Source of the DNA: an uncultured Candidatus Saccharibacteria bacterium
Lineage (GTDB): Bacteria > Patescibacteriota > Minisyncoccia > Phycocordibacterales > DATDWN01
Direction: 5' to 3'
Length of the DNA stretch: 64,000 nt
NCBI GenBank assembly: GCA_964551495.1
Contig: CAZKCA010000002.1
Span: forward strand, 19,648-83,647
Made by a program: the position numbers and the translations under genes. Under the pieces are notes generated by a model. That model was not told the origin of the DNA, searched no databases, and saw nothing but the letters and a program-made list of their open reading frames with translations. This document shows, in pieces, positions 5,769 to 40,768 of the stretch (positions are counted from its first letter, which is position 1; each line of letters starts with the position of its first letter).

Positions 5769-5775
5769 AGTAATA

Positions 5776-5808
5776 GAAAAACCCGCGCCAAGGTGGGAGG
5801 CGCGGGTT
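5776..5808. terminator. GC-rich hairpin, terminator for the minus-strand gene 5822-6412
   Basis: CCCGCGCC-AAGGTGGGAG-GCGCGGG. On the minus strand it is followed by TTTTTCTATT. Confidence 0.5.
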
Positions 5809-5821
5809 GCGAAGAATCCTT

Positions 5822-6412
5822 TCATTCTTCAGTGTTGGTCTTGCATGGCAAGACCGGACAGATCCCGAAGGGGCGATCAGGGAACTTCTTGCAAAACCTT
5901 TTCAAGGTGGTCACAGTGATTCCTTTCTCGTCACTGTAGACTGTGAGGAATTCTCCTCGATGTTTTTGCGGACAAACAAGTCCGCTTTCGGCGTATCGAA
6001 TTCGTGGAGATTTCACTCCTCTGGATCTTTGGATTGCAAAGGATGCAGTTTCTGAAAACAGATACTGCATAACAGTTTGACATTTGAAAGAATGAAATTG
6101 TTCAGGAGTCCCTCTGAACTCAGGATGAATTTCAAATCCGAAAGGAAAACAAACTATTTCCTCTTCGGAAGAAGGGTCAACCTCGATTCCGTTGTCAACA
6201 TTTATGATGACGCCGAAATTTATCAGAAACAGGTCCAGCGCATCAGCAAAATGAAGCCTGGATGTCACAACTGGCTCTGCTTTGTCAAAGTAGGCCAGGG
6301 TATGGTTTCTCACAGAGATCGAATGGGGAACTCGTAGATTTTCCCCAAATAGATCAAGAATGCTTGTAATTCTTGTTGGCCATCCACCAACTAAGGCGAC
6401 AGCAGCTGACAT
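5822..6412 (-). CDS. hypothetical protein, GC-anomalous (about 47% GC versus about 30% in flanks)
   Basis: 196-aa uninterrupted ORF in a locally GC-rich block. It has its own upstream -35/-10-like sequences (TTGACA..17..GTAAAT, minus sense) and a downstream hairpin. No family recognised by eye. Confidence 0.5.
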   Translation of the reverse strand: MSAAVALVGGWPTRITSILDLFGENLRVPHSISVRNHTLAYFDKAEPVVTSRLHFADALDLFLINFGVIINVDNGIEVDPSSEEEIVCFPFGFEIHPEFRGTPEQFHSFKCQTVMQYLFSETASFAIQRSRGVKSPRIRYAESGLVCPQKHRGEFLTVYSDEKGITVTTLKRFCKKFPDRPFGICPVLPCKTNTEE

Positions 6413-6481
6413 TGTTGTTTCCTTTCTTTTTCCCTGCTATCAGGGAATTCTTATTAAAATTTACAATTTTTTGTCTGTATG

Positions 6482-6506
6482 TGTCAACACTTATCCACTG
6501 TTGACT
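6482..6506. promoter_or_regulatory. imperfect palindrome TGTCAACA-N9-TGTTGACT in the divergent region between the GC-rich gene and the ABC efflux operon
   Basis: 8-bp arms with 7/8 complementarity. It overlaps the TTGACA -35-like hexamer (minus sense) and lies 40 bp upstream of the ABC permease start. A MarR gene ends the operon downstream. Confidence 0.4.
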
Positions 6507-6542
6507 TGTTAACTATAAAAATGTAAACTTTTAGGAGTATTT

Positions 6543-7835
6543 ATGAAATCGGCAGAATTGACTAAAAAGAGAGAGAAAAGATTTGATAAATTTAAAACCT
6601 CCATATCTCTTGGTTTCTTTTTGGCTATAAGACAAATAAAAAGAAGTAGTATTGGAACTACTGCGCTTATTGTTTTTGTGATGACACTAACATTTCTAAA
6701 CCTTGTCGTTGTTTATGGTATTTTGGTTGGACTAATACAGGGTTCTGTTGATGTTTACAAAGAAAAATTTTATGGAGATGTAAATATTTCGTCTTTGCCC
6801 AGAAAAGAATACATAGAAAAAAGCCCTGAAATAATTGAAATAGTTAAAGGTTTGCCTTGGCTGGAATCATATTCTGCAAGATACACAAAAAGTGGAACAG
6901 TAGAAGGGACTTATAAAGAAAGAATAGACTATACAGAAAAAGCAAATATAGCAGGAGGAATATTGACTGGGATTGATCCAGAAAAAGAAGATGCCACAAC
7001 TGAAATATCAAAATTTGTTGTAGAAGGACGATATCTAACTCGAGAAGATTCTGACGGGGTTATTTTGGGAGCCAATACACTCAAAAAATATTTAGATATT
7101 GATGCACCAGAACTTCCTCTTTTGGAAAACGTAGAAGTTGGGGACAAAGTTAGGATTATTGTTGGTGATTATACAAAAGAAGTTACGGTTATTGGTGTCA
7201 TAAAAAGTAAAGCAGATTTCGATCAGAGAATTGTAATGCTTGATACTACACTTAGAAATCTTATAGGAAGAACAGATTATAACGTAAATGAAATAGCTAT
7301 CAGAACAAAACCTTTTACTGATCCTTATTTGGTAAAAAATGCATTGATGCAAAGTGGAGTAGGGGAAACAGCTTTGGTTCAAACTTTTGAGGAAGGTTTG
7401 CCAAAATTTTTGAAAGATATTCAAGCAACTTTTGGACTTTTGGGTAATGTAGTTGGATCTATTGGTTTAGTAGTCGCCTCCATTACAATATTTATTGTTA
7501 TTTATATAAACGCTATTACTCGCAGAAAGTTTATTGGTATTTTGAAAGGTATAGGTATAGATTCAATAGCAATAGAATTTTCCTACATACTACAATCTCT
7601 ATTTTATGCAGTCATGGGTATTCTTTTAGGAATGACTATTCTATACGGATTTTTGGTTCCTTATATAGACGCAAATCCTATAAACTTCCCATTTAGTGAT
7701 GGTATTTTGGTTGCAAATTTGGGAGAAACTTTGATTAGAGCCGGACTTTTGCTTATCGCAACAATATTTGCTGGATTTATACCTGCGCGATTGGTCGTAA
7801 AACAAAATACATTAGATGCTATTTTAGGAAGATAA
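6543..7835 (+). CDS. ABC transporter permease, FtsX/MacB-like
   Basis: 430 aa with N-terminal TM, a large extracytoplasmic domain and three C-terminal TMs (FtsX fold). Co-operonic with the ATPase and HlyD adaptor. Confidence 0.85.
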   Translation: MKSAELTKKREKRFDKFKTSISLGFFLAIRQIKRSSIGTTALIVFVMTLTFLNLVVVYGILVGLIQGSVDVYKEKFYGDVNISSLPRKEYIEKSPEIIEIVKGLPWLESYSARYTKSGTVEGTYKERIDYTEKANIAGGILTGIDPEKEDATTEISKFVVEGRYLTREDSDGVILGANTLKKYLDIDAPELPLLENVEVGDKVRIIVGDYTKEVTVIGVIKSKADFDQRIVMLDTTLRNLIGRTDYNVNEIAIRTKPFTDPYLVKNALMQSGVGETALVQTFEEGLPKFLKDIQATFGLLGNVVGSIGLVVASITIFIVIYINAITRRKFIGILKGIGIDSIAIEFSYILQSLFYAVMGILLGMTILYGFLVPYIDANPINFPFSDGILVANLGETLIRAGLLLIATIFAGFIPARLVVKQNTLDAILGR

Positions 7836-7840
7836 AATTT

Positions 7841-8530
7841 ATGGAAGAAATAATAAAAGTAAAAGGATTGGTTAAATCATATAAAAGCGGAGATTCAGAG
7901 CTGGTTGTTTTGAAAGATTTAGATTTGTCTGTTCCAAAAGGCCAATTTATCTCTATCACCGGTAAATCTGGTTCTGGTAAGTCAACTCTTCTTTATCAGT
8001 TGGGTCTTTTGGATCATCCAAATAAAGGTCTGATAATAATAGATGGTGTTGATATTAGTGATTTGGATGCAGAAGATAGGACAGATTTTAGACTTTCAGA
8101 ATTGGGCTATGTTTTCCAAGACTATGCCTTGATACCGGAATTAACTTCTATGGAAAATGTTATGCTACCTCTACTTATGCAAGGATTAACAATCAAAGAA
8201 GCCACAAAAAAAGCAAAAGACTCTTTAGAAAGAATTGGGCTTGGTGATAAAGTTAATAACTTACCAAGTCAGCTTTCTGGAGGACAACAACAGAGAGTTT
8301 CTATAGCTAGAGCCATAGCCCATGATCCAAAAATAATTTTTGCAGATGAACCTACTGCAAATTTGGATACTGAAACCTCAAAATCTGTCTTGGATGCTTT
8401 TTTGGATTTACATAAACAAGGACAAACTATAGTTATGGTAACTCACGAAAAAGAATATGCAGATTTAACAGATAGGGTTGTGTTGTTAAGTGATGGAAAA
8501 ATTATGTCAGATTTAATGAATAAAAAATAA
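7841..8530 (+). CDS. ABC transporter ATP-binding protein (MacB/LolD-like)
   Basis: Walker A GKSGSGKSTLL, signature LSGGQQQRVSIARA, Walker B IIFADEPTANLD. Confidence 0.9.
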   Translation: MEEIIKVKGLVKSYKSGDSELVVLKDLDLSVPKGQFISITGKSGSGKSTLLYQLGLLDHPNKGLIIIDGVDISDLDAEDRTDFRLSELGYVFQDYALIPELTSMENVMLPLLMQGLTIKEATKKAKDSLERIGLGDKVNNLPSQLSGGQQQRVSIARAIAHDPKIIFADEPTANLDTETSKSVLDAFLDLHKQGQTIVMVTHEKEYADLTDRVVLLSDGKIMSDLMNKK

Positions 8531-8532
8531 TT

Positions 8533-10071
8533 ATGAAAAAGACAATTAATTTTATAAAAACAAGATATATTTTAAGTAGTATTATAGGTTTAGTTATTAT
8601 TTTAATCGTTGTTTTTGCTGTAAAATCTGGTAATGGTAAATATGAAATATTTGAAGTAACTAGAGGTGATGTGGTCCAAAAAGTTGTTGTTTTAGGAAAA
8701 ACTAAATCTGCTCAAGTAGTAGATCTTGGATTTGAAGTATCTGGTAGAGTAAGTCAGGTAAATGTTTCTGTTGGTGATAAGGTTTTTGTTGGACAAAATC
8801 TGGTTTCACTCGATCAGGGGACCGCCTATGCTGAACTTCTTAAGGCACAAGCAAACCTAGCTTCAGAAGAAGCTAACCTGTCTGAGTTAAAAAATGGAGC
8901 AAGATCTGAAGAAATAAGTATCTCTGAAGCAGAAGTTTCCAAGGCTCAAATTGCTGTTGTTGATTCAAAAGACGAGGTTTCTTCTAAAACAAGAGAAGCT
9001 TATATAAAATCTGACGATGTTATATATAATACAGTCGATAGTTTTTTCTCAAATCCTAGAAGTCAAAACCCGCAAATAAACTTAACTTTGTCTGATCTTC
9101 AATTGAGAAATAACCTAAATAATACCAGACTTTTGATAGAACCTTTGATGCAAGATTGGCGAGACAGTTCTTTTGATGGTTCAAGAGAATCAGTCTCTTT
9201 GGCTAAAAAAAACTTAAACTACCTAAAAAACTTTCTTGATCTTATGGCTAATGCTGTTAATAGCCAATCTGCAAACTCATCTCTTTCGCAAACAACCATT
9301 GATTCATATAAAGCATCTATTTCTGCTGCTAGAACAACCCTTATAAATTCTCTAAGTGGCGTTACAACAGCTGAAGAAAAACTTAATACTTCTGAATCTA
9401 ATTTGGTAGTAGCAGAAAGAAATTTAACTTTGAAAAAAGTTGGTGCGACAGAGGAAACAATAAAATCTGGAGAGGCTAGGGTGTTACAAGCACAGGCATC
9501 TGTTCAAAGTGCACAGGCTTCTCTATCTAAACTATCACTTAGATCACCTTTAAATGGAGTTGTGACTGTAAAAAATATAAATCCTGGTGAAATTGTAACT
9601 CCTGGATCAGTTGCTGTGTCACTTATATCTGAAAGTGACTTAGAAATAGAGGCTAATGTTTCTGAGATAAGCATAGGCAAAGTTACAGTAGGAAATGAAG
9701 TTGATATAACTTTTGATGCTTTTCCTGGTAGAGTTTTCAAAGGAGCTGTTGTCTATATAGACCCAGCTGAAACAGTTGTTAACGGTGTTGTAAACTACAA
9801 AGTAACAATTCAGTTTAATGAAAATTATCCAGAAGTAAGGAGTGGTTTAACTGCTAATCTAGATATTAAAACATCTATTAAACCTTCTGTCTTAAAAATT
9901 CCTCAGTATGGAATTATAAACAAAGATGATGGCAAATACGTTTCTGTTAAAAAAGGTAATTCTTTTGAAGAAGTCAAAATAGAAACTGGCTTGGTTGGCC
10001 AAGATGGTTTTGTTGAAGTATTGAGTGGACTAGAAGAGGGACAGGAAATAAATTTGGTTATAAAACCATAA
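8533..10071 (+). CDS. HlyD/MacA-family periplasmic adaptor (membrane fusion protein) with long coiled-coil
   Basis: N-terminal TM, lipoyl-like VSGRVSQVNVSVGDKVFVGQNLVSLD, a long coiled-coil, and a beta-barrel segment VTPGS...EVDITFDAFPGRVFKG. Confidence 0.8.
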   Translation: MKKTINFIKTRYILSSIIGLVIILIVVFAVKSGNGKYEIFEVTRGDVVQKVVVLGKTKSAQVVDLGFEVSGRVSQVNVSVGDKVFVGQNLVSLDQGTAYAELLKAQANLASEEANLSELKNGARSEEISISEAEVSKAQIAVVDSKDEVSSKTREAYIKSDDVIYNTVDSFFSNPRSQNPQINLTLSDLQLRNNLNNTRLLIEPLMQDWRDSSFDGSRESVSLAKKNLNYLKNFLDLMANAVNSQSANSSLSQTTIDSYKASISAARTTLINSLSGVTTAEEKLNTSESNLVVAERNLTLKKVGATEETIKSGEARVLQAQASVQSAQASLSKLSLRSPLNGVVTVKNINPGEIVTPGSVAVSLISESDLEIEANVSEISIGKVTVGNEVDITFDAFPGRVFKGAVVYIDPAETVVNGVVNYKVTIQFNENYPEVRSGLTANLDIKTSIKPSVLKIPQYGIINKDDGKYVSVKKGNSFEEVKIETGLVGQDGFVEVLSGLEEGQEINLVIKP

Positions 10072-10096
10072 ATTTTTTGTCTCTATTTTTAAAATT

Positions 10097-10543: not shown

Positions 10544-10583
10544 CTATACAAAAAATTTTTTTCTTAATATAATATAACCAGTT

Positions 10584-11462: not shown

Positions 11463-11466
11463 AAAC

Positions 11467-12147: not shown

Positions 12148-12172
12148 TTTAAATTAACATTTTGCATAGATT

Positions 12173-14650: not shown

Positions 14651-14730
14651 TAATATTGATCTAAATAACTAAATATGTTATGCTTATGTACAGGCAGATA
14701 AATCTGTACTTCTAGTTCAAAGGAGAAAGA

Positions 14731-14916
14731 ATGGGAGACTATTCTGAATGCCCTCGTTGTGGTAACACCGAAAGTGGTGGTGTTTATCGATGTAATGATT
14801 GTGGTTGTATCTCTTGTAAAGAATGTGACTTGCCCGGGAGTCGCTGCCCAAGTTGCAAGAGTGACGACTATGATCTTATCGGGTACATCGATAGCGATGA
14901 AGACGATGATGATTGA
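14731..14916 (+). CDS. small Cys-rich zinc-ribbon protein with poly-acidic C-terminal tail, GC-anomalous
   Basis: 61 aa: MGDYSECPRCGNTESGGVYRCNDCGCISCKECDLPGSRCPSCKSDDYDLIGYIDSDEDDDD, with 9 Cys in CxxC-type spacing. Strong SD AAGGAG 6 nt upstream and a perfect palindromic terminator downstream. About 46% GC. Confidence 0.55.
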   Translation: MGDYSECPRCGNTESGGVYRCNDCGCISCKECDLPGSRCPSCKSDDYDLIGYIDSDEDDDD

Positions 14917-14923
14917 ACCCAAC

Positions 14924-14955
14924 AAAATGCGTTTGAATTAATTCAAACGCATTTT
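14924..14955. terminator. perfect 16-bp palindrome, bidirectional terminator
   Basis: AAAATGCGTTTGAATT/AATTCAAACGCATTTT lies between the convergent Zn-ribbon gene and the methyltransferase 14954-15442. Confidence 0.6.
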
Positions 14956-15442
14956 AAATTTCATATATAAATAAATACTTTCCTCTATCTTTATTTTTAC
15001 TTAAACCTCTTATATCTATAACCTCTTTTGGCTCCAGGTTACTAAATTTAAAATCGCAAGAAACCAATCGAGTTCCTTTTTTACATTGGTTTAGTATTTT
15101 AGGTAATAACTTATCTATCACATCTGCATATAAATACAAAAATATATGTGTAGCTTCACCAAAATTAGATTTAAATATATTCTCTCTTCTTATTTCTATA
15201 TTTCTATATTTATTGGTATTTATTTTTGCCAATAAATAAGGTATAAAACCTATTTCTATTCCAACACATTTGACCGTAGGATTAAATCTAGATACTTCAA
15301 TAAGTATTTGCCCATCTCCGCACCCTAAGTCGTAAATTATACTGTCATTTTTTGGGTTAAGACTTTTTATAATTTCTTTATTTATTCCTTTTGGTATAGA
15401 AATAAATGGAGCATCCGCCAACAAAAAAGACACAATGCTCAT
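14954..15442 (-). CDS. membrane-anchored class I SAM-dependent methyltransferase
   Basis: Motif I IYDLGCGDGQILIEV. Start placed at MSIVSFLLADAPF, because the longer ORF extension runs through an extremely AT-rich non-coding stretch. Confidence 0.55.
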   Translation of the reverse strand: MSIVSFLLADAPFISIPKGINKEIIKSLNPKNDSIIYDLGCGDGQILIEVSRFNPTVKCVGIEIGFIPYLLAKINTNKYRNIEIRRENIFKSNFGEATHIFLYLYADVIDKLLPKILNQCKKGTRLVSCDFKFSNLEPKEVIDIRGLSKNKDRGKYLFIYEI

Positions 15443-15565
15443 TATCAAAAATAATCCTATTAAAAATAATATGAATATTGATATTATTATAATTATTAAA
15501 TATAGCAACATCTTTTTAATAAATAATACTTTACTTAATATAATTAAACAATATATCATTGTTGT

Positions 15566-16246: not shown

Positions 16247-16305
16247 CATTATAATGTTAAGATGTATAATTGATGTAGGTGTAAATTCTTGAGAAAGGAG
16301 GCGGT

Positions 16306-16353
16306 ATGACCGACAAACCCCCTCATCTTCCGAGACCGCGACCTACAAAGTAG
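16306..16353 (+). CDS. 15-codon proline-rich sORF MTDKPPHLPRPRPTK (candidate leader/arrest peptide or oncocin-like peptide)
   Basis: ATG preceded by AAAGGAGG with 6-nt spacing; 60% GC in a 30% GC genome. A stop codon is followed 4 nt later by a GC hairpin and T-run. Confidence 0.4.
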   Translation: MTDKPPHLPRPRPTK

Positions 16354-16357
16354 GTTA

Positions 16358-16386
16358 AGGGGGGACAACATGTCCCCCTTTTCAAA
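16358..16386 (+). terminator. intrinsic terminator / candidate attenuator hairpin
   Basis: AGGGGGGAC-AACAT-GTCCCCCTTTT begins 4 nt after the sORF stop and ends 4 nt before the ATG of the prolyl oligopeptidase gene. Confidence 0.6.
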
Positions 16387-16389
16387 TAT

Positions 16390-19362: not shown

Positions 19363-19420
19363 GTGCAAAACTTTATTTACAACTATTTTTAGAAGAGTAT
19401 CATAAAACTGGAGGTGTACA

Positions 19421-19633: not shown

Positions 19634-19691
19634 GGGCGCTTTTACACTGTAATTTTTATTATAAATTTGATAGTATGGGGTAGATAAACAT

Positions 19692-31233: not shown

Positions 31234-31268
31234 AACCCTCCCTACTTTTTCAAGTGGGAGGGTTTTGT
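31234..31268 (+). terminator. intrinsic terminator after the M23 peptidase gene
   Basis: CCCTCCC-TACTTTTTCAAGT-GGGAGGG followed by TTTTGTTCTTT. Confidence 0.55.
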
Positions 31269-31359
31269 TCTTTATCATCTTTTAATGCTACGTAGTATAA
31301 AGCAAGAACCGTTATAAAAAGACAAAATAGAGCTGTTAACACTAAGGCCATATCAGGAT

Positions 31360-31803
31360 TCATTTTCTCACCTTCAATAAAAAGTCGAGAGCGTCCATTA
31401 CGGCCTTGAATTTTTCAAGTGAACAAGACCTTACAAAATCACCCTGTTCTATATTTTCAAAAAAAGATAAAACTTTACTTATAGAATACAGATGATTATC
31501 ATAAAAACCTTCTTTGTTCCTAATGTTCATATTCTTATGAATACTTTTTAGTTTTTTATGATAGATTTTAATTAGTCTAACAAGACATTTATATTCTTCT
31601 CCTCCGTGGATAAAATAAGGTTTATTGCCTATAATAAAATCCACCTCTGCTTCATTTCTAATAAACAAGATTAGAAGCTTTATCTTTTTTAGATCTTCCT
31701 TAGATTCTGTTATCTTTTTCAGCGGATCATAATTAGAATCTCTAATCATTACTAACATTAAAAGACAGAGAACTAAAACAAAGAAAACCACAATGAAGAA
31801 CAT
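31360..31803 (-). CDS. hypothetical membrane-anchored protein
   Basis: 147-aa ORF with an N-terminal hydrophobic helix and AT-rich native codon usage. Confidence 0.45.
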   Translation of the reverse strand: MFFIVVFFVLVLCLLMLVMIRDSNYDPLKKITESKEDLKKIKLLILFIRNEAEVDFIIGNKPYFIHGGEEYKCLVRLIKIYHKKLKSIHKNMNIRNKEGFYDNHLYSISKVLSFFENIEQGDFVRSCSLEKFKAVMDALDFLLKVRK

Positions 31804-31924
31804 CTCAAACCCTCCTAAGCGAAAGATTATAATAAAAAAGCAATTAAGTCAATTTCATTATTTTATCTTTTTTAATAAAAATTGTTATAATATAAACATA
31901 TTTAATTAGTTAAAAAATAAAAAT

Positions 31925-32179
31925 ATGAAAAGAAATGTTGGTTCTTTAGATAGAGCAATTAGAATAGTTTTGGGACTACTTTTTATATGGTGGAGCACAA
32001 GCCTTTCAGGACTTCTCTCTGGGCTAACGCTTATTATAGGAACTATATTGTTTATTACAGGAGTAGTAGGAAGATGTTTGATGTATAAACTACTAAAAAT
32101 GAAAACTAATAAATGTGAACACTGCGGTAAAGGAGAATGTGACTGCAATAATATCCAAACTAATACAAACAACCAATAA
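31925..32179 (+). CDS. DUF2892-like small membrane protein with Cys-rich tail
   Basis: MKRNVGSLDRAIRIVLGLLFIWW matches the NVGxxDRxxR N-terminus of the YgaP-like DUF2892 family. C-terminal CEHCGKGECDC. Confidence 0.55.
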   Translation: MKRNVGSLDRAIRIVLGLLFIWWSTSLSGLLSGLTLIIGTILFITGVVGRCLMYKLLKMKTNKCEHCGKGECDCNNIQTNTNNQ

Positions 32180-32202
32180 TAAAATAAGTAAGATGCCCAA
32201 TA

Positions 32203-32241
32203 AAAAATAAACACAGCATATTTTTGCTGTGTTTATTTTTT
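32203..32241 (+). terminator. perfect palindromic terminator
   Basis: AAAAATAAACACAGCA-TATTTT-TGCTGTGTTTATTTTTT. Confidence 0.6.
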
Positions 32242-32763
32242 GATACCTAAAATAAAGGGTAGGGGACTTCCCTATTGGGAATAGAAAATTAGTCACTAAA
32301 TCTTTTTATGAGATAAAAGATATTTGACGTATTAGGGGAATAGATAAATATACACGATAAACTAATAATCATAATAAAAATAAACAAATTACATTGAACA
32401 AATTGTTTAAAAGATCAATAAATTATTTTAATAGATTTAAAGAACTTTCTCTCTTATATAGAGTGACCAAAGATATATTGTGCGACGTATAATGTATTTA
32501 TTCCCCTCTGTAAATAAAGACCTTAAATGCAAACTTGAAAATAAAAAATAAATGGAAAAACTCCCTACCCTGTGGTAGTATGGTCCTCGGAGGAATGGAG
32601 AAATGCAGAACAACTACTTTGATCCCCTGGAATTTGAAAAAGGCGGCCGACTTATATCAAATTAATGATTGTTATAATTATTATTTCAATAATACCCCTA
32701 ATGATCTTCGTACAATCTTCTATGAAGTCACTTAGGCAAGACCAGAACAAAGTAAGTTGGATA

Positions 32764-33027
32764 ATGGAAACTAAATTAGAACAAATTGGGCCCTACCACT
32801 ACGTAGGATATGCCAAAGAAAACGGAAAAGAAGGTATCCGAGTTGTTACAATCAACTTAGTAGATTGTCCTAAAGAGTTTAAGTTTCGATTTCCTAAAAA
32901 AGGAGATTTTGTCCGTGTTGAACTTTACAAACAAGAAGAAATAGCAGAGACAAAATCTGGAGACCTTATACTCACCCTTCCTAAAGATTTTATAAAAATG
33001 GGAATACTAGATCCTCAATGTAAATGA
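32764..33027 (+). CDS. hypothetical 87-aa protein (weak AbrB/MazE-like swapped-hairpin motif near C-terminus); longer ORF from 32665 possible
   Basis: METKLEQIGPYHYVGYAKENGKEGIRVVTINLVD...SGDLILTLPKDFIKMGILDPQCK. The motif G-x-hydrophobic-I/L-P-K-x-hydrophobic-x-x-x-G-I resembles AbrB-N. This is low-confidence pattern recognition only. Confidence 0.3.
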   Translation: METKLEQIGPYHYVGYAKENGKEGIRVVTINLVDCPKEFKFRFPKKGDFVRVELYKQEEIAETKSGDLILTLPKDFIKMGILDPQCK

Positions 33028-33037
33028 CACCAAACTC

Positions 33038-33060
33038 AAAGCCCCTAATCGGGGCTTTTC
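33038..33060 (+). terminator. intrinsic terminator
   Basis: AAAGCCCC-TAAT-CGGGGCTTTTCTTT. Confidence 0.6.
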
Positions 33061-33101
33061 TTTATTCAAAAAATGTGATAATTTTTTGTTTGGAGGCGCC
33101 G

Positions 33102-33200
33102 GTGACATTAAAAGAATTGGCGATCGGTTGTCTGACTGGTCTTGCTGTTTTTTCAATAATGACAGCGGCTAGCATAATGTTTTTTCTGAAATGGAGGTGA
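33102..33200 (+). CDS. tiny hydrophobic peptide ORF (32 codons, GTG start)
   Basis: GGAGG 5 nt upstream of GTG. Translates to (M/V)TLKELAIGCLTGLAVFSIMTAASIMFFLKWR, a single predicted TM helix. An extended -10-like TGTGATAAT sits 20 nt upstream of the SD. Confidence 0.4.
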   Translation: MTLKELAIGCLTGLAVFSIMTAASIMFFLKWR

Positions 33201-33205
33201 CAGGC

Positions 33206-33274
33206 ATGTTTTCCAACGAACAAACCGTTTATGCACTCATTGTCCTTGCCTGGGCAATAACATTTCTTTTCTAA
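33206..33274 (+). CDS. tiny hydrophobic peptide ORF (22 codons)
   Basis: ATG 8 nt after GGAGG, which overlaps the stop of the preceding sORF. Translates to MFSNEQTVYALIVLAWAITFLF. An intrinsic terminator follows immediately. Confidence 0.4.
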   Translation: MFSNEQTVYALIVLAWAITFLF

Positions 33275-33284
33275 CCCACAACAA

Positions 33285-33304
33285 AAGCCCCTTTCGGGGC
33301 TTTT
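33285..33304 (+). terminator. intrinsic terminator
   Basis: AAAAGCCCC-TTTC-GGGGCTTTT. Confidence 0.6.
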
Positions 33305-33314
33305 ATCGTGAATA

Positions 33315-33990: not shown

Positions 33991-34017
33991 ATAAGTTATG
34001 CACTAATTCCCTACCCT

Positions 34018-37000
34018 TTAGAACTCCCTGTATATCAAAGGCTTGAGAGAAAATACAGCTGTGACAGTTTTAGGTGAATTTATTGTCAAAACACAGTTTC
34101 CAGTACCAGAACAATCCCCTTGCCAACCAACAAATCTCCAAGCGGAAGAATCTGGATAAGGAGTTAAGGTAACAACAGTACCAGAAGCATAATTTCTAGA
34201 ACAATTTGATCCACAGTCTATCAATGTATCAACACTTTTAACAGTTCCACCATAAGTTTTGAAAACTTCCAAGTTATGAGTTGTATTAGGAGTAATAGTT
34301 ACAGAGTCACTATCCCCTCCTTCAGTATTTGAACAGGTTAAAGTATAAGTTGTATTGTTTATTATTCCATTTATATCCTCACTACCTCCCAATACAGATT
34401 TTGATCCACTCCAACCACCAGATGCTGTACAACTAGTTGGATTTCCCGTTGTAGACCAAGAAATAGTTGTGGATAGAGGAGCATTACCTGTTGTTGGATT
34501 ACCACTTATTGTTACAGTAGGAACTGTTCCTTGTTTTTGCCAAGTCAATCCATACCCAGCCCCACCTCCATTTTCATACATTTCATAAACAAGAGTTCTC
34601 TGGCCAGCAGATAATACAACAGGAGAACCTGAGGTGCTTCTTATTGCATGGTCAGACCAATCATTTACCAAATATCCACTATCTGGAACACCATCGTTGT
34701 TATCATCAAAATATGCACGAGAACCATCATCTGACGCCGTAGTAAATACATATGTTCCAGCTGTAAAATTGAATCTTCCTTTCCATCTTACAGAATAAGT
34801 ATCTGTCAAAGTTCCTGGACCAGCAGATCCCCAGTCAACATTCGGCAGAGGTGAAGCTGTATTTGGTACAGGAGAAGCTAGGACAGGTCCAGTTATTGGA
34901 TTTATAGCAGCTAAAGTATTAAATGCAGTTCCTGTATAAGCACAACCATACATTTGATTTGTCCCTACTGTGGCAGGGTTACAAGAACCACCTGAGGCAG
35001 CTCCGACAGTAACTGAAGCATACCTTGTTACAGATGCTGGAGAAGCGTCAGCTCTATCACACCTTATACCAAAAGTATAATTTGAGCTTGGAGATACATC
35101 TGTATAACCACCACTTACACTCTTTGATCCGCTCCAACCAAACCCAGTTCCATTATACGCATAACAAGAAGTTGGGTTTCCCGTTGTAGACCATGTCAAT
35201 CTTGAACTATTTCCGGTTGTTATAGAAGAAGGTGTTGCTGTAAATGTTAATCCTATAGTAGGAGAAGATATAACAGGTACGGATACGGAAGTCGCACAAC
35301 CAGCATCTTTTCTTATTTCTATAGTATAAGTTCCTGTTCCAGAAAGAGGATAAACGTTTATTTGATTTGGTCCTCTATAAGTTGTAGGAACATTAAAACC
35401 ACTAGGACTATAAGTTATAGAGGCATTGTCTATTTCTGATTGTGTCCCGAAATTACCATAAATTATAAGGTAGCCGTTCATGTAAACTTCTGGAGTGTAC
35501 ACACCTGTACTAGCATTATAACCGTTATATCCGCTGACACTAAAGTTACAAGCATTAGGATTTACTTTGACAGCAACAGAATCCACAACATCAGCAGTCC
35601 CAGATTTACTACAAATTATATTGTAAGTATAAGTTCCAGCGGTTAAACTAGATCTTAATTCAGAACCACTAGGTACTGATTTGGATCCAGACCAATAACC
35701 AGAAGCTGTACAACTAGATGGACTCCCAGTTGTAGACCAACTAAGTGTTGTTGAGTTTGTAGGTAGGGTCATATTTGTTCTAGAAGCAGAAAGGTCCACA
35801 GTTATAGGAGAAGTTGCCCCAACTGTTACTGTGGCATTTGCAGAAACAGGAGAAAGACCTGCTTTGCTACATGTAATACTGTATGTATATGTCCCTGCGC
35901 TAGGAATAGAAACACCCTGACTTCCGCCGGATGTAGACCTAGACCCAGTCCATGCTCCACTAGCTGTACAACTATCTGGAGCACCTGTTGTTGTCCAAGT
36001 AAGTGTAGAAGAGTTTGAAGGCCATGTCATAGATGTTGGGCTAGCAGACAAAGTCACTCCTATAGAAGCTGGAGCAGATAGATTTACTGTAAGAGTAGCC
36101 AGCGTTCCTCCAGCTGTTGTATCTCCTCTTCTTTGCAAATAAAATACAGTTCCATTGGAAACATTGGACACAGCAACACTTCTACTACCTGAAAGATGCT
36201 GAGCCTCTAGTGTTCCAGAAGTACTTCCCCTTCTTACATCGTGATCACAATTTACATCAGAATATATAGTTGTAGCACCAGTTGCATTTGAAGTAACTAT
36301 TGGATTTGGGTTAGCATAAAAATTTGTAACAGAACAAGTTGGCTGAGTAACAACAACAGTGGCTTCTTTGTAATAATCCGCAACACCAGTCTTTGTACAA
36401 GTTATTCCATATGTATAAGTTCCAACAGTCAGACTAGATCTTACCTCTGAACCACCCGCTGTACTTTTTGCCCCACTCCAAGCTCCACTAGCTGTACAAC
36501 TTTCAGGATTTCCTGTTGTAGACCAAGTAAGTGTTGTAGAGTTTGTGGGTAGTGTCATAGATGTTGGAGTAGCTGAAAAATCTACAGTAATAGGTTCTGG
36601 TGGGACAGGACCAACTCTTGTAGCCATTGTCACTGGTCCAACGTCTCCATCGTTTGCCAAAGACATACCAATAGAAACAATAACTGTTCCAGCAGGGGCT
36701 CTTAGAACTCTTTTTAATGAGCTAATTGATGGATATCCATGTAACCTACAACTCCCTATATAAGGATCCTCCCAGCCTTTATATCCTGCGGTGTTATTAT
36801 TCCCAATATCAACAAGACTTGCATATTCTTGATAATAACAAGGTTTTTCTGGTGAATCATCTATATATGGACTAGCACTACCCATACCTCCAGAAGTAGG
36901 CCTTCCGGATCTTGTTCCCCATGTCCAACCAACAGCATATCTTCCTGTTTGATATGGAGCTCCTGGGTTTGCCGGGTCATTTCCTGGACCATTTGTACAA

Positions 37001-37239
37001 GTTATACTTGTAGATCCTATAGAATTAAAATTTATAGTTCCATCTGGATTCACTGGGGCGTATAAAATAGACAAAGTACAAGCCTTGTCGTCTGAACCAT
37101 ATCCTATAGCAGTTAGCCCACTACCCTCGGGAACAGTCATAAGTGCTCCAGAGTCATAATAATTTTCGGCATTGACTGATGATAGCCCCGCAAAAAATAA
37201 AATTGATGCTAATAAACAAATTTTTAATAATCTTTTCAT
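34018..37239 (-). CDS. giant secreted surface protein: signal peptide, five Ig-like Cys-pair repeats, PA14 domain, C-terminal InlB-B-repeat-like domain
   Basis: 1073 aa. Signal MKRLLKICLLASILFFAGLSSVNA. About 85-aa repeats of the form TLTWSTTGNPxSCTASGxWSGSKSxxGGSE...GTYTYxIxCSK, four in tandem and a fifth after PA14. PA14-like YSVRWKGRFNFTAGTYVFTTASDDGSRAYFDDN...YEMYENGGGAGYGLTWQ. Terminal GTVVTLTPYPDSSAWRFVGWQGDCSGTGNCVLTINSPKTVTAVF. Confidence 0.8.
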   Translation of the reverse strand: MKRLLKICLLASILFFAGLSSVNAENYYDSGALMTVPEGSGLTAIGYGSDDKACTLSILYAPVNPDGTINFNSIGSTSITCTNGPGNDPANPGAPYQTGRYAVGWTWGTRSGRPTSGGMGSASPYIDDSPEKPCYYQEYASLVDIGNNNTAGYKGWEDPYIGSCRLHGYPSISSLKRVLRAPAGTVIVSIGMSLANDGDVGPVTMATRVGPVPPEPITVDFSATPTSMTLPTNSTTLTWSTTGNPESCTASGAWSGAKSTAGGSEVRSSLTVGTYTYGITCTKTGVADYYKEATVVVTQPTCSVTNFYANPNPIVTSNATGATTIYSDVNCDHDVRRGSTSGTLEAQHLSGSRSVAVSNVSNGTVFYLQRRGDTTAGGTLATLTVNLSAPASIGVTLSASPTSMTWPSNSSTLTWTTTGAPDSCTASGAWTGSRSTSGGSQGVSIPSAGTYTYSITCSKAGLSPVSANATVTVGATSPITVDLSASRTNMTLPTNSTTLSWSTTGSPSSCTASGYWSGSKSVPSGSELRSSLTAGTYTYNIICSKSGTADVVDSVAVKVNPNACNFSVSGYNGYNASTGVYTPEVYMNGYLIIYGNFGTQSEIDNASITYSPSGFNVPTTYRGPNQINVYPLSGTGTYTIEIRKDAGCATSVSVPVISSPTIGLTFTATPSSITTGNSSRLTWSTTGNPTSCYAYNGTGFGWSGSKSVSGGYTDVSPSSNYTFGIRCDRADASPASVTRYASVTVGAASGGSCNPATVGTNQMYGCAYTGTAFNTLAAINPITGPVLASPVPNTASPLPNVDWGSAGPGTLTDTYSVRWKGRFNFTAGTYVFTTASDDGSRAYFDDNNDGVPDSGYLVNDWSDHAIRSTSGSPVVLSAGQRTLVYEMYENGGGAGYGLTWQKQGTVPTVTISGNPTTGNAPLSTTISWSTTGNPTSCTASGGWSGSKSVLGGSEDINGIINNTTYTLTCSNTEGGDSDSVTITPNTTHNLEVFKTYGGTVKSVDTLIDCGSNCSRNYASGTVVTLTPYPDSSAWRFVGWQGDCSGTGNCVLTINSPKTVTAVFSLKPLIYREF

Positions 37240-37240
37240 G

Positions 37241-37783
37241 TTATTTTATTGTTAAGGATATTGTTACATAAGAAAGACCTCCGTCTATAGAAGAAACAGT
37301 GATAGAAAAACGATCGTTTTCTTTTGAAGCAGATAGGAAATCATACTTTGATTCATTGACTTCTTCTAAGAGATAATCTTCTCTAGAAAAAAAATCTTTA
37401 AAAGAACCTACTATTTGATTTCTGGATAAAATAGAATAATAGACATAATTTACAAAAGTCACTTCTCTCTCTGTCCCAGCAAAATTTGTTACTGCCTTGC
37501 TCAGCTCTATATCTACTGGGTTTGTTTCTACAGGCAAACCAAGTAGATACCCAGTAGGAGCTTTGTCTTTTTCTTCAAATAATACAGTTTCTTGTTCTGC
37601 CTTTAGTCGAGCATTTTCTTCTGCCATTTCTGGGTCAGAAACATAAACCTGCTCTCCTCCTACTACTGGCTTATTGTTAAAGTAGTATTTAACAAAGAAA
37701 AACCCTCCTACCAACACAACTAAAAGAACTAATAAAATTATTAAATTACTTTTTTTAAAAGTATTATTTGTAGTTTCGTCCAT
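37241..37783 (-). CDS. hypothetical membrane-anchored protein, co-operonic with the giant surface protein
   Basis: 180 aa with N-terminal TM LIILLVLLVVLVGGFFFV and an extracytoplasmic domain. It ends 1 nt before the start of the surface-protein gene. Confidence 0.5.
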   Translation of the reverse strand: MDETTNNTFKKSNLIILLVLLVVLVGGFFFVKYYFNNKPVVGGEQVYVSDPEMAEENARLKAEQETVLFEEKDKAPTGYLLGLPVETNPVDIELSKAVTNFAGTEREVTFVNYVYYSILSRNQIVGSFKDFFSREDYLLEEVNESKYDFLSASKENDRFSITVSSIDGGLSYVTISLTIK

Positions 37784-37886
37784 AATAAAATTATATATTG
37801 TTTCTAGCTAGTTAGCCAATTATAGCTATGTAAAACTGTGTAAAACTGAAGACCACAAAAATACAAAAAGTAAACCTGTGGAAAAC

Positions 37887-37915
37887 TTGACTTTTTTTAA
37901 AAAATAGTCTATGGT
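37887..37915 (+). promoter_or_regulatory. sigma70-like promoter for the beta-barrel-like gene
   Basis: TTGACT, a 17-nt spacer, then TATGGT; about 50 nt upstream of a GGAGG SD. Confidence 0.45.
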
Positions 37916-37964
37916 GGAGTCAGACAGCCTTGCTGTTCTATCTTTTAGATTCGGAGGCTTCGAG

Positions 37965-38612
37965 GTGAAAAAGTTTGTCTCGCTCTTTGCAATCCTTTTG
38001 GCGATCGTACTCGCGACCGCCTCCATGAACGCTCAAGAAAACCGCAAGGTTGCCTTTTATGCTATCGGTGCTGGTAGCATCGATAGTGGATCTTCTTCCA
38101 GCAACATCAGCGGACTTGGCACCCAAGTGGGTGCTGGTGTCGACATCAATCCTGAGGGCTTTGGCCTTGGACTACGGTTTACCAACGGCTCCCCTGTGGA
38201 CCAAAGCTTCAGTCGAGGCTTTGATAACCTTCCTCCGTGGTATACGGGGCAAGTTCCTCAAGCCAACTATAGGACCGAAAACAGAAGCCGAGTCTTCTCA
38301 GCAATGTTCCAGAAAGGGTTCGGCAACCAAAAAGCCAAACTTATTCTGGGTGCTGGACCAGGAGTTCTGCTAACCCGTTCAAACATCACGGAAAGTTACA
38401 CCGGTGTACCGGCAAACTTTCCTTTTGGAGACACTTCCACAAGAAGTTTCTCTAACAAGCAGAACACTTTTGTCGGCACCTTCGGCGCCACAATTGTCGT
38501 CCGAGGAGGAAAAAACTTCGACTTTCGGTTCGGGGTTCAATATCTCCGAGGATTTACCGGAGAAAAACAGTCTTTCATTATGCCCGTTGGCGGTGCCGGC
38601 GTTGGCTTCTAG
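37965..38612 (+). CDS. outer-membrane-protein-type beta-barrel-like protein (OMP_b-brl-like), GC-anomalous
   Basis: GTG start 7 nt after GGAGG. Signal peptide VKKFVSLFAILLAIVLATASMNAQ. Alternating hydrophobic beta-strand patterns (KVAFYAIGAGSI, FGLGLRFTN, KLILGAGPGVLLT, TFVGTFGATIVVRG, FDFRFGVQYLRGF) and a C-terminal GAGVGF ending in Phe. About 50% GC. Confidence 0.5.
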   Translation: MKKFVSLFAILLAIVLATASMNAQENRKVAFYAIGAGSIDSGSSSSNISGLGTQVGAGVDINPEGFGLGLRFTNGSPVDQSFSRGFDNLPPWYTGQVPQANYRTENRSRVFSAMFQKGFGNQKAKLILGAGPGVLLTRSNITESYTGVPANFPFGDTSTRSFSNKQNTFVGTFGATIVVRGGKNFDFRFGVQYLRGFTGEKQSFIMPVGGAGVGF

Positions 38613-38617
38613 TTCTT

Positions 38618-38733
38618 CCCGCCCCTTGGGGCGGACAAAGAAATCCCATAATTTGGGCTTCCACGTGGAAGCTCCAGATTATGGGATTTTTCTATTACAC
38701 TAAGTGTCAAGGGGCATCCTTGACATATTTTTT
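38618..38733. terminator. three consecutive stem-loops ending in a T-rich terminator
   Basis: Hairpin 1: CCGCCCC-TTGG-GGCGG. Hairpin 2: a long AAATCCCATAAT...ATTATGGGATTT stem enclosing the perfect palindrome GCTTCCACGTGGAAGC. Hairpin 3: TGTCAAGG-GGCAT-CCTTGACA followed by TATTTTTT. The cluster lies between convergent genes. Confidence 0.5.
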
Positions 38734-39211
38734 ACAAAAACAAAAGAATAGCCAAAGGAACCAAAGTTAACCAGAACATATAATCATTTGAGAAAATGTT
38801 ATCCACACTACTTCCAAAGTTGTAAAAAGAATCTAGTGACACAACAGAATAGCTAAAGACTAATACCAAGACAACTAAAGCAAGTGAGTAAGCTATGATT
38901 TTCAGATATTTTGACCCGCCATATCCAACAGAAGAAACATACCTGCCAATTATTATATCTAGTGGTATTAGGAATATTAGAAATAAGACCACTTTATTTA
39001 TAAGCAAAGCTACACCCCCATCCATAAACAAAAGTTTATCTGTAAAAGGAAAACTACTAAAAAGATAAAGTGCTGGATAGAAAGAAAGAATAAGAGAAAT
39101 CATTCTGTTCTTTCCAAAGTAAAGAGCGTAAGAAAAAAATATAATGAATAAAACTAATAAAGCGATTATATCAGTTGAAACAAAAGAACCATTTAAAAGA
39201 TTTGAGAACAT
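38732..39211 (-). CDS. hypothetical polytopic membrane protein
   Basis: 159 aa with 4-5 predicted TM helices. No recognisable family. Confidence 0.45.
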   Translation of the reverse strand: MFSNLLNGSFVSTDIIALLVLFIIFFSYALYFGKNRMISLILSFYPALYLFSSFPFTDKLLFMDGGVALLINKVVLFLIFLIPLDIIIGRYVSSVGYGGSKYLKIIAYSLALVVLVLVFSYSVVSLDSFYNFGSSVDNIFSNDYMFWLTLVPLAILLFL

Positions 39212-39252
39212 ATAAATATATTATACAGACAAAACAAAAAGAAAAAAGGAGG

Positions 39253-40335
39253 TTATACCCCCTCTTTTCTTAACTCCTCTACTATTTTCTTTGCACTTTT
39301 GGAAAGTTTGTTTGGAAGAACAATCTTTATATTTACCAATATGTCCCCTCGTCTGTTTTTGTCATAAGGTACACCTTTATTTTTTATCTTCAAGATTTCT
39401 CCGTGAGAAATACCCTCTGGAATTTTTAGAGAAATATCACCATCTAGTGTTTTGATACTATACTCTGCACCAAGCAAAGCATCTGAAAGTTTTACACCCA
39501 AATCCATCACAAGATTTTCTCCAACTTTCTTGAAAGTAGAATGTTTTTTGACATAAATCTTTATATACAAGTCCCCTGGTTGTCCATGAGATATTGCCTC
39601 TCCTGCACCAGAAAGACGGATCATCTCTCCATTTTCTATACCAGCTGGAATATGGACTTTAATTTCACTTTCTTTTTTGTTTATACCTGCACCTTTACAT
39701 ACAGAACACTTAGTCTTTGGAACCTTCCCAGATCCTCCACAAGTAGAACAAGTGACAATATTTTCAAAACTACCAAAGAAAGATTGTTTTACTTCACGTA
39801 TGCTTCCATTTCCATTACAAGTAGTACAAGTAACCATCTCAGAACCTTTTTCTGCTCCTGTACCAGAACAATGACCACATTCAGAAGCTTTGTTTAGAAG
39901 AATTTTTCTTTCAACTCCAAAAATAGATTCTTCAAAAGAAACTTCTAGGTCAATAGAAATATCTCTTCCTCTTTTTACTTTCTGTCTTCTTCCGCCACCA
40001 AACACATCTCCGAATATGTCTCCTAGATCAAACTCAAAGCCTCCCGCACTTCCCTGATTGAACCCAGAAAAGTCAAAACCTCCAAATCCACCGAAGCCTT
40101 GGCCAGCCCCTGGACCTCCTCCGCCAGCAAAAGTCCTACCATAAGCATCGTATTCTGCTCTTTTCTTATCATCAGACAGGACAGAATAAGCCTCATTTAC
40201 TTCTTTGAATTTAGCATCATCTCCATCTTTTTTATCCGGATGATACTTATGAGCCAAAGTTCTGAAGGCTTTTTTTATTTCATCTTTGGAAGCCTTTTTT
40301 GGGACTCCCAATACTTCATAGTAATCTTTTGACAT
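39253..40335 (-). CDS. dnaJ: chaperone DnaJ
   Basis: J-domain with HPD (KYHPDKK), a Gly/Phe-rich region, and four CxxCxGxG zinc-finger repeats ([32 protein letters not shown]). Confidence 0.9.
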
Positions 40336-40414
40336 ATTTTTATTATAGTTTTTTTGGTTGATTAGTATACTTGACTAGAGCCAATTTTCTGGTAATGTTT
40401 GGTCTGGAGGAAAA

Positions 40415-40663
40415 ATGTTCACAATCATTTTGGATAGAAATAGAACCATTGAATTTGGTGAATTTGAATCTATAGAAAAGGCACAGGAACTTTTAAAAGA
40501 TAAGGGGTGGGAACAAATCAATCTTAATAACTTTATTGTAAGAACACGATATCGTTCTTATTCTGCTCAGATCATAAGAGCAAACGAAAGGAAACCTCAC
40601 ACAGACTTGCCAACCAGATCAAACTATAGTTCAAATCCCCACGACAGTGAAATGATAATTTGA
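40415..40663 (+). CDS. hypothetical 82-aa protein encoded divergently between dnaJ and dnaK
   Basis: Own promoter-like TTGACT..17..TAATGT, SD GGAGG, and an imperfect hairpin plus T-run downstream. No family recognised. Confidence 0.4.
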   Translation: MFTIILDRNRTIEFGEFESIEKAQELLKDKGWEQINLNNFIVRTRYRSYSAQIIRANERKPHTDLPTRSNYSSNPHDSEMII

Positions 40664-40768
40664 ATCTAGGATTTCCTACAAAAGCCACGGTAACCACCGC
40701 TGGCTTTTTCTTTTATCCAACTTCCAACTTTAGATCAAAATAATTCTAACAAAAAAATAATTGAGTTT

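Follow-up and report, generated by a model that had tools for sequence, protein, structure and literature searches.

Gene-sized accessory cassettes with atypical codon usage, probably exchanged by recombination, in the chromosome of a Patescibacteria bacterium

The 64-kb stretch of DNA considered here (the window; 32.5% GC overall), from contig CAZKCA010000002.1 of an uncultured Candidatus Saccharibacteria bacterium, carries seven small modules, several of which differ in codon usage from the genes around them. We propose, with a probability of roughly 60%, that the modules are independent accessory gene cassettes, not one system, that are swapped by recombination. A preliminary description of the sequence had listed seven mini-genes, and all seven are present where it placed them. 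They are referred to by their products as p196, zn61, p70, p87 and p82 (196, 61, 70, 87 and 82 aa), sORF15 (a small open reading frame, ORF, of 15 codons) and the outer membrane protein-like (OMP-like) gene. Each cassette would be a self-sufficient transcription unit (promoter, Shine-Dalgarno sequence (SD), short ORF and intrinsic terminator) lodged in a junction between housekeeping genes. In p196, the OMP-like gene, p70, zn61 and sORF15, codons foreign to the genome would reflect acquisition from outside the lineage, or else a non-native compositional regime. The cassettes would then move, or be replaced, among related strains via homologous recombination through conserved flanks, so that their histories would be decoupled from those of their neighbours. 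Their ages would differ: p82 would belong to a family long resident in these genomes, the OMP-like gene and p196 would predate the split of the sampled genus-level relatives, and zn61 with a methyltransferase, sORF15 with an S9 peptidase, and p70 would be insertions at the species or strain level. On this reading, an episymbiont of ~1 Mb has, as part of its accessory genome, cassettes the size of single genes that are self-expressed, occupy fixed junctions and are swapped between ~99%-identical strains.

Judged from its genes, the window belongs to the chromosome of a bacterium of the Patescibacteria (also called the Candidate Phyla Radiation, CPR) of the Parcubacteria type. It encodes ribosomal proteins, rpoA, infA, a secY-like gene, grpE-dnaK-dnaJ, several aminoacyl-tRNA synthetases, murG, ftsW and a MacB-type exporter, and its DnaK is 81-84% identical to that of metagenome-assembled genomes labelled Patescibacteria, Parcubacteria or Minisyncoccia. 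The window was compared with related loci (L-numbers such as L002, L083-87 and L168) totalling 2.44 Mb. The module junctions are reproduced in independent assemblies, and an assembly chimera is therefore ruled out.

Codon usage and expression signals of the modules

The GC content at third codon positions (GC3) was compared with the value expected from the amino acids of each protein under the codon usage of the window (56 genes), for which the background z-scores span -3.7 to +3.2. Five genes, p196, OMP-like, p70, zn61 and sORF15, have a GC3 of 0.35-0.51 against an expected 0.16-0.19. The deviation is largest in the OMP-like gene (ORF GC 50.5%, GC3 0.51, z 12.3), followed by p196 (44.5%, 0.405, z 8.0), p70 (44.1%, 0.435, z 5.1) and zn61 (45.2%, 0.35, z 3.3). 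In sORF15 (57% GC) the GC3 z-score is 2.8 over 14 codons, and about half of the GC excess (0.571 observed, 0.449 expected from the amino acids) comes from Pro and Arg codons. In the anomalous genes, Arg is encoded by CGN where native usage is AGA, and Leu by CTN where it is TTA. Since ribosomal-protein genes have a GC3 of at most 0.25, the excess is not an expression bias. The range of 45-60% GC given in the preliminary description therefore applies to five modules but not to those at 32.5-33.3 kb and 40.4 kb, whose ORFs have 34-35% GC. Neither of the latter is compositionally foreign: p87 is native in composition (ORF GC 34.5%, GC3 z 0.7; 39-40% GC in the two micro-ORFs that follow it) and p82 is borderline (34.2%, GC3 0.30, z 2.3). 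When the GC maxima of 150-nt windows were set against 20 mononucleotide shuffles, of which 19 peaked within 0.447-0.473 and one at 0.527, only 5652-6447 (maximum 0.54) and 37874-38747 (maximum 0.567) rose beyond the shuffles, segments explained by amino-acid content aside.

All seven modules have an SD of the GGAGG/AGGAG type, and downstream of each lies a G+C-rich hairpin followed by a run of T. Terminator-like sites are enriched (14 against 6 expected; 22 against 7.6), whereas promoter-like hexamers are no commoner than chance at this AT content (57 for an expected 74, and 43 for 41). Read from the sequence, the modules do carry signals of their own, as the preliminary description had it; taken one by one, the promoter motifs are weak evidence, save for the perfect TTGACA-16-TATAAT at 16243-16270. 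It was also noted earlier that no module has a recognisable housekeeping role; consistently, no small protein, p196 included, has a significant match in Pfam, NCBIfam, PHROG or PADLOC.

Replacement of p196 within nearly identical flanks

The p196 module (5776-6490, minus strand) comprises an ORF at 5822-6412, a promoter-like TTGACA-18-TAAATT at 6487-6458 on the same strand, a hairpin in the 5' untranslated region (6430-6447) and a bidirectional terminator hairpin (~5781-5812) common to p196 and a 130-aa gene. The order FtsX, p196, 130-aa gene, L27 is kept in L002 and L168-171, and the orthologues are GC-rich too (GC3 0.43, 0.42 and 0.30). Over 1.4-11.9 kb, L168 and the window share ~99% identity (98-100%), with an FtsX dS of 0.038. 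Within this background p196 shows a dN of 0.42 and a dS of 1.68, confined to the ORF: the divergence breaks at the start and stop codons, and the flanks with the promoter and the terminator are 98-100% identical. The whole ORF has been swapped for a divergent allele within ~99%-identical flanks. A mosaic restricted to the N-terminal half, suggested by blastn, was dropped, as the identity profile shows replacement of the entire ORF. Such swapping of cassettes between ~99%-identical strains is a signature of loci under diversifying selection. In divergent pairs the dN/dS of p196 is 0.12-0.25; with ~0.1-0.26 for the OMP-like gene and 0.2 for p82, all three genes evidently encode proteins and are under purifying selection.

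The AlphaFold2 (AF2) model of p196 reached a pLDDT of 63, and Foldseek returned no match in the PDB at E<0.4. No match was obtained by tblastn against phages and plasmids. A p196 profile run against 1.84 billion representatives had a single outside match (P0025), which was rejected as an artefact: it stems from a protein of 2533 aa with 15 identical repeats. The hypervariable p196 adjoins a MacB-type tripartite exporter (FtsX permease, ABC ATPase and HlyD-like adaptor; 6543-10071), and a shared spacer of 130 nt holds the divergent promoters of the two. They may be functionally linked.

Three insertions between kinase and synthetase genes

In L090 the genes for a histidine kinase, MT226, tryptophanyl-tRNA synthetase (TrpRS) and AsxRS are contiguous, and in the window all three junctions are interrupted by an insert: zn61 with a methyltransferase (915 bp), sORF15 with an S9 peptidase, and the p70 unit (330 bp). 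The first is strain-specific (14651-15565): in L168 the kinase stop and the MT226 start lie 1 nt apart, without the 915-bp insert. It contains the zn61 ORF (14731-14916, plus strand; 61 aa, 9 Cys and a DEDDDD tail) and, on the minus strand, a membrane-anchored methyltransferase (14954-15511) of native AT-rich composition, whose best match (NF041081, 1e-20) is below cutoff; the two share a terminator at ~14925-14955. The matches of zn61 to zinc ribbons are weak, and its CxxC pairs have the regular spacing typical of such domains. Between 11900 and 16250, a region with two methyltransferases and a 7TM histidine kinase, the window is only 76-95% identical to L168; this 4.3-kb patch, which includes the zn61 indel and ends at the junction of sORF15 and the peptidase, looks like an imported recombination tract. 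The second insert is discussed below; the peptidase is absent after MT226 in both L168 and L090.

The p70 module (19363-19691, plus strand) has an ORF at 19421-19633, a promoter-like TTTACA-16-TATCAT at 19376-19403 and a terminator at ~19620-19646. TrpRS directly abuts AsxRS, without p70, in L090 and L094. Where p70 is shared, between the window and L173, its dS is 0.045 against 0.43 for TrpRS and 0.67 for AsxRS, with five non-synonymous and two synonymous changes. Homologues of p70 are restricted to its own 90% cluster, tblastn against phages and plasmids gave no match, and searches of PDB sequences with p70, zn61, p87 and p82 were equally negative.

Age of the OMP-like and p196 loci

The OMP-like gene lies in a block, PA14-p180-OMP-m159-dnaJ-small ORF-dnaK, that is found in the same order in L083-L087. 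The orthologues there are 53-59% identical in protein sequence, have 48-52% GC and a GC3 of 0.44-0.54, beside neighbours with a GC3 of ~0.2; dN/dS is ~0.1-0.26. Between L083 and L084 the OMP-like dS is 1.7 against 0.4-0.8 in the flanks. In the relatives with 81-84% DnaK identity (L004-L008), grpE-x106-dnaK-dnaJ-(m159)-SLT is kept and the OMP-like gene, p180 and PA14 are absent, as is any sequence similar to p82; in L005 and L008 the segment m159/OMP-like/p180/PA14 (~33.8-39.2 kb) is missing between dnaJ and the SLT gene. The modules are therefore not conserved core genes: they are absent from relatives that retain synteny, and three of them are insertions. The exception to this patchiness is p82, whose family occurs in distant relatives.

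The flanks of the OMP-like and p196 genes differ between the window and its relatives by a dS of ~1.0-1.3 or more, with 4-fold sites at 76-81% of saturation. Because the flanks are so near synonymous saturation, the acquisitions of these two genes predate a long divergence. The transfers had been described as recent, which does not hold in general: the OMP-like gene and p196 are syntenic across this distance and p82 belongs to an old family.

Foreign origin or maintained composition

In a genome of 32% GC, almost any imported DNA looks GC-rich, and xenology is for this reason the default reading of such genes. The cassettes would then be of foreign origin. Several observations weigh against this. 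For none of the modules did a donor or an outside homologue turn up among 5.8 billion clustered proteins, 1.84 billion representatives, plasmids and phages; homologues occur in the same clade only, and the higher-GC donor or host suggested in the preliminary description has not emerged. Composition and a patchy distribution are the only grounds for a foreign origin. Every orthologue retains its excess in GC3 despite flanks near synonymous saturation. An F81-type decay calibrated on the 4-fold sites of the flanks indicates that a lineage retains ~0.43-0.49 of an initial GC deviation since its split from the window, so that the present GC at 4-fold sites (GC4) of ~0.47 needs an ancestral value of ~0.8, or of ~1.0 when the calculation uses the divergence of the OMP alleles themselves, which is older. 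When substitutions in p196 were polarised, GC-to-AT changes were not in excess (6, against 23 AT-to-GC), a count biased by an AT-richer, saturated outgroup, shared in its bias by control genes and not relied on. Such persistence of GC is as compatible with maintenance, through selection or biased gene conversion, as with xenology. In p70, zn61 and sORF15, moreover, variation is too small to show that functional proteins are encoded. A first, rough argument that passive amelioration is impossible was dropped, as the 4-fold calibration makes it borderline: passive amelioration is possible yet strained, with selection, biased gene conversion or re-import from a GC-rich pool as alternatives. A GC3 anomaly that has outlasted a divergence close to saturation, about as far as passive amelioration would allow, offers a test bed for what maintains base composition.

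The strongest alternative is accordingly that these are native genes whose GC-rich codons are actively maintained, by selection on mRNA or translation speed or by GC-biased gene conversion (gBGC) at recombination hot spots, with no foreign donor. It would account for the GC3 of 0.30-0.54 kept in every OMP-like and p196 orthologue at a flank 4-fold p/B of 0.76-0.81, for allele replacement at these same two loci, and for the missing donor homologues and the substitution pattern of p196. We nevertheless consider it unlikely. The choice of CGN over AGA involves the first codon position, and together with the Gly/Ala/Pro/Arg-rich make-up of the products it points to a different compositional origin; highly expressed genes are AT3-rich here, and the modules are absent from slightly more distant relatives. 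Known effects of bacterial gBGC amount to a few percent of GC3, not to a rise from 0.2 to 0.5.

That the GC spikes merely follow from the amino acids encoded by ordinary native genes is highly improbable as a general explanation. It is correct for the gene of the PA14 protein (40% GC, reaching 40-45%; GC3 0.179 against 0.194 expected, z -1.4) and for the Gly/Phe-rich (G/F) region of dnaJ (150-nt maximum 0.53), where the spikes reflect amino-acid content and not foreign codons, and it also covers p87, p82 and about half of the excess in sORF15. The preliminary description had itself named Pro/Arg/Gly-rich proteins with native synonymous codons, encoded by conserved core genes, as the outcome that would undo its proposal. 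Synonymous choice is however non-native, beyond the Pro/Arg/Gly content, in four to five modules; the z-scores of p196, the OMP-like gene, p70 and zn61 refute the amino-acid reading for these four, and the modules are not conserved core genes.

Little more can be said for the idea that p70 and zn61 are structured non-coding RNAs with incidental ORFs, which we regard as slightly less probable again. G+C-rich islands in A+T-rich genomes are often RNAs; the p70 and zn61 folds are more stable than those of shuffles (z -4.4 and -5.5, terminators included), and p70 is conserved alike at all codon positions, with a dS far below that of its flanks. Against this, neither has an Rfam match at E<5, in both, a correctly spaced strong SD precedes an ORF that opens with ATG and takes up the whole unit, and the spacing of the CxxC pairs in zn61 is that of a zinc ribbon. 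At gathering thresholds as at E<5, no Rfam family was detected in the window or in any GC island. The big GC islands had been considered as known structured RNAs, and this was dropped on the absence of Rfam matches and on the dN/dS, which shows p196 and the OMP-like gene to be coding. Least credible of all is an origin as phage morons, or as prophage or plasmid remnants: the unit architecture (promoter, ORF and terminator), the deviant GC and the insertion between conserved genes are indeed those of morons, but the term used in the preliminary description does not apply in its phage sense, since the modules are flanked throughout by housekeeping genes (tRNA synthetases, chaperones and an ABC exporter), the surroundings contain neither an integrase nor phage structural genes, no phage or plasmid matched, and PHROG yielded no family beyond one marginal match of p82 (E 0.008).

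The reading of the modules as exchanged cassettes finds a closer parallel in the Patescibacteria themselves, for which hundreds of islands and single-gene transfers have been reported, mostly within the phylum (PMC12455944). As a class, the modules represent a further worked example of this frequent gene exchange. They share with the reported islets an atypical composition, a patchy distribution, exchange mostly among related ultra-small bacteria, and restriction-modification (R-M) genes in hot spots (PMC12455944). Unlike them, the units of the window are single small orphan ORFs of 15-215 codons, transcribed as separate units from promoter to terminator; two keep a GC3 excess near synonymous saturation, and one was replaced ORF-for-ORF between ~99%-identical strains.

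A putative outer membrane barrel in a presumed monoderm

Host-interaction roles had been suggested for the modules and are plausible. From two of them we infer cell-surface or anti-cell functions: one would be an 8-stranded barrel, probably secreted and encoded beside a PA14 adhesin-like protein, the other an oncocin-like peptide with a potentially protective peptidase. The two would be candidate CPR host-interaction factors, an outer membrane-type barrel in a presumed monoderm and a peptide paired with the sort of peptidase that degrades proline-rich antimicrobial peptides (PrAMPs), and they are specific, testable leads.

The OMP-like module (37887-38730, plus strand) has a promoter-like TTGACT-17-TATGGT (37887-37915, plus strand), an SD (GGAGG) before a GTG start, an ORF from 37965 to 38612 (215 aa) and terminator hairpins at 38617-38726. 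By eye, the product has a Sec-type signal peptide (MKKFVSLFAILLAIVLATASMNA, followed by QE) and a C-terminal GGAGVGF, and the signal peptide and the C-terminal aromatic residue are conserved in all six homologues. The AF2 model built from these six is an all-beta barrel of moderate confidence (pLDDT 67.5). Foldseek aligned it with OmpA, Ail, OmpX, the N-terminal domain of OprF, NspA and OmpW (E 2e-6 to 1e-3, probability 1.0, TM 0.4-0.7). PF13505 matches four of the six family members (best E 3.2e-7), with precomputed matches on P0020 and P0021; the window sequence itself has only a match to PagL at E 0.0055, under Pfam thresholds. Most of the variation falls in three long loops that connect conserved strands, a pattern also seen in the surface-exposed loops of outer membrane proteins. 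The product thus looks, in its model, like an 8-stranded barrel of the OmpA/OmpX kind.

The family shares with small 8-stranded outer membrane barrels (the OmpA N-domain, OmpX/Ail, NspA, OmpW and PagL; PF13505) the Sec signal peptide, the predicted barrel, the C-terminal aromatic residue and variable alternate loops. It differs in being confined to this clade (five clusters among the 5.8 billion clustered proteins), in the sub-threshold sequence of the window member, and in its phylum. Patescibacteria have been proposed to lack an outer membrane (PMC12102498), and the gene is for that reason out of place. The barrel, secreted by a cell without an outer membrane, may insert in the outer membrane of a diderm host; this is the weaker of the two functional proposals. 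Neither a profile search of PDB sequences nor tblastn against phages and plasmids returned a match for the family. Divergent from the OMP-like gene, on the minus strand at 34018-37783, are the genes of a PA14-domain surface protein (1073 aa, with a signal peptide and internal repeats) and of a 180-aa membrane-anchored protein (p180). The PA14 protein (34018-37239) is rich in Gly/Ser/Thr/Ala/Pro, and its diverged internal repeats are spaced at multiples of ~260 nt.

An oncocin-like peptide or a leader of the S9 peptidase

The sORF15 unit (16243-16389, plus strand) consists of the consensus promoter TTGACA-16-TATAAT (16243-16270), an SD (GGAGG), the ORF 16306-16353, which encodes MTDKPPHLPRPRPTK, and a terminator hairpin (16358-16383). 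An S9A-family peptidase of the prolyl oligopeptidase/oligopeptidase B-like kind (16390-18354, plus strand; 654 aa, Peptidase_S9_N and Peptidase_S9) begins 36 nt downstream of sORF15, without a signal peptide, SD or promoter of its own. Its best NCBIfam match is oligopeptidase B (2e-42, below cutoff), and collection scans found no relatives. The peptidase was co-inserted with sORF15. It is abnormally AT-rich (23.6% GC, GC3 z -3.7), a deviation opposite to that of the co-travelling sORF15.

Thr at position 2 of the sORF15 product should allow removal of the initiator Met. The remaining peptide, TDKPPHLPRPRPTK, is identical to oncocin in 10 of 14 residues when aligned from residue 1 (D2, K3, P4, P5, L7, P8, R9, P10, R11 and P12), and a match as good arose in 6 of 1,000,000 composition-preserving shuffles (p ~6e-6). 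It aligns from the same residue with Onc14 (VDKPPYLPRPRPPR), a truncated form of the oncocin-type insect PrAMPs (Onc19, VDKPPYLPRPRPPRRIYNR). In Onc112, residues 1-12 are seen on the ribosome, in the exit tunnel and the peptidyl-transferase centre (PTC), residues 13-19 being unmodelled, and a change of Tyr6 to His raised activity against some E. coli strains (PMC9306569). The sORF15 product has the same change at position 6 (Y6H), so that all ribosome-contacting residues are identical or represent a tolerated change. The truncations Onc14 and Onc15 keep the protection of PTC nucleotides, growth inhibition and activity in minimal inhibitory concentration (MIC) assays (PMC12529121); they retain R14 (R15), whereas the sORF15 product ends in TK. 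Bacterial oligopeptidase B (OpB) has been reported to confer PrAMP resistance (PMC9917282), and it is an OpB-like peptidase that adjoins sORF15.

It can be hypothesised, tentatively and at odds that we consider low, that sORF15 encodes a bacterial, unmodified oncocin-type PrAMP, that TDKPPHLPRPRPTK would plug the PTC and exit tunnel in the ribosomes of other bacteria, and that the cytoplasmic peptidase would protect the producer. Were this so, no bacterium would have been known to make such a peptide before, and an ultra-small episymbiont would have in it a weapon or a means of host control. Unlike oncocin, it would be bacterial, shorter and produced directly from a 15-codon ORF, without a prepro-sequence or signal peptide. 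Its restriction to one lineage, the lack of an export signal or leader, a C-terminus (TK in place of PRRIYNR) less cationic than that of oncocin, a property on which uptake by target cells depends, and a unit that resembles a leader or attenuator all tell against a strong claim. A regular-expression search of the 2.44 Mb of related loci found sORF15 only in the window and in the identical L172, and a degenerate DNA pattern of the motif had no match in viral contigs.

Another possibility, still doubtful though better placed, is that sORF15 is merely a cis-acting leader, a translation-coupled attenuator of the S9 peptidase and TrpRS, to which the likeness to oncocin would be irrelevant. The sORF15 stop lies 5 nt before the terminator stem, and a terminating ribosome would mask its 5' arm; the leader RNA folds with a z-score of -5.0 and has its SD paired to CCCCCU Pro codons. 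The downstream peptidase has no SD or promoter, and six of the 15 codons specify Pro: a Pro-rich leader before a proline-related peptidase would be a logical design for attenuation. The unit resembles attenuators of the trpL, hisL and pyrBI type in its short ORF rich in one amino acid, its immediate terminator and the promoterless gene downstream. Unlike these, it shows no convincing antiterminator pairing, and no clear alternative could be drawn to the minimum free energy fold, which contains the SD:CCCCCU hairpin and the terminator. Nor would one expect a leader that does no more than stall ribosomes to match oncocin in register at 10/14 positions, over all ribosome-contacting residues. The binding orientation of PrAMPs is opposite to that of the nascent chain, so the likeness to oncocin would be of no help in stalling. 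The roles of attenuator and trans-acting peptide are not mutually exclusive.

The p87 and p82 modules and neighbouring elements

The p87 module (32764-33310, plus strand) contains the p87 ORF (32764-33027), a terminator at 33038-33058 and two SD-preceded, hydrophobic micro-ORFs (33102-33200, 32 aa, and 33206-33274, 22 aa) followed by a terminator at ~33284-33305. It has no homologues in the related loci, where the site is occupied by an R-M system in L084 (N6/N4 methyltransferase and a 176-aa gene) and by an 88-aa ORF in L085. To judge from these occupants, the site is a variable hot spot at a switch of GC skew and gene orientation. The cumulative GC skew reaches its maximum at ~31200-33300, where gene orientation changes from plus to minus, as expected at a replication terminus.

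The p82 module (40350-40710, plus strand) has a promoter-like TTGACT at ~40368, an ORF at 40415-40663 and a terminator at ~40683-40708. Its product belongs to a fast-evolving family of small proteins with the motif G(P)F-x-s-x-x-EA-x-x-FL-x-x-x-GW, for which Pfam has no match. The family lies antisense between dnaK and dnaJ in L083-87, L004 and L006; members elsewhere are at 12463-12756 in L083 and 4174-4644 in L087, where the gene is duplicated. The dN/dS is 0.2, and the dS is 0.21 against 0.585 for dnaJ.

ARAGORN found no tRNA gene across the window, that is, not a single one in 64 kb of a small genome. A structured element without a match to any Rfam family is repeated in five copies (40770-40894, 42879-42953 (inverted), 44526-44650, 53393-53510 and 56745-56817). 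Its core of ~73 nt forms a long stem closing a three-way junction (fold z -9.3), and the copies show compensatory changes (GGAG:CUCC to UGAA:UUCA; AAAUUU:AAAUUU to UUUUU:AAAAA). It also adjoins dnaK in L084 and L087, and one copy lies inside an MnmA-like ORF (56030-57238), which recalls the in-frame palindromic elements of Rickettsia. The ORF 42852-43085 (x77, GC3 z 4.6) overlaps the repeated element and is probably no gene. Upstream of dnaK there is a further GC-rich stretch (43024-43224, 150-nt maximum 0.48), which the same ORF also overlaps and part of which, 43029-43118, recurs at 96.7% identity elsewhere in L175, downstream of the p82 gene; from this recurrence, the stretch looks like a second small mobile intergenic element.

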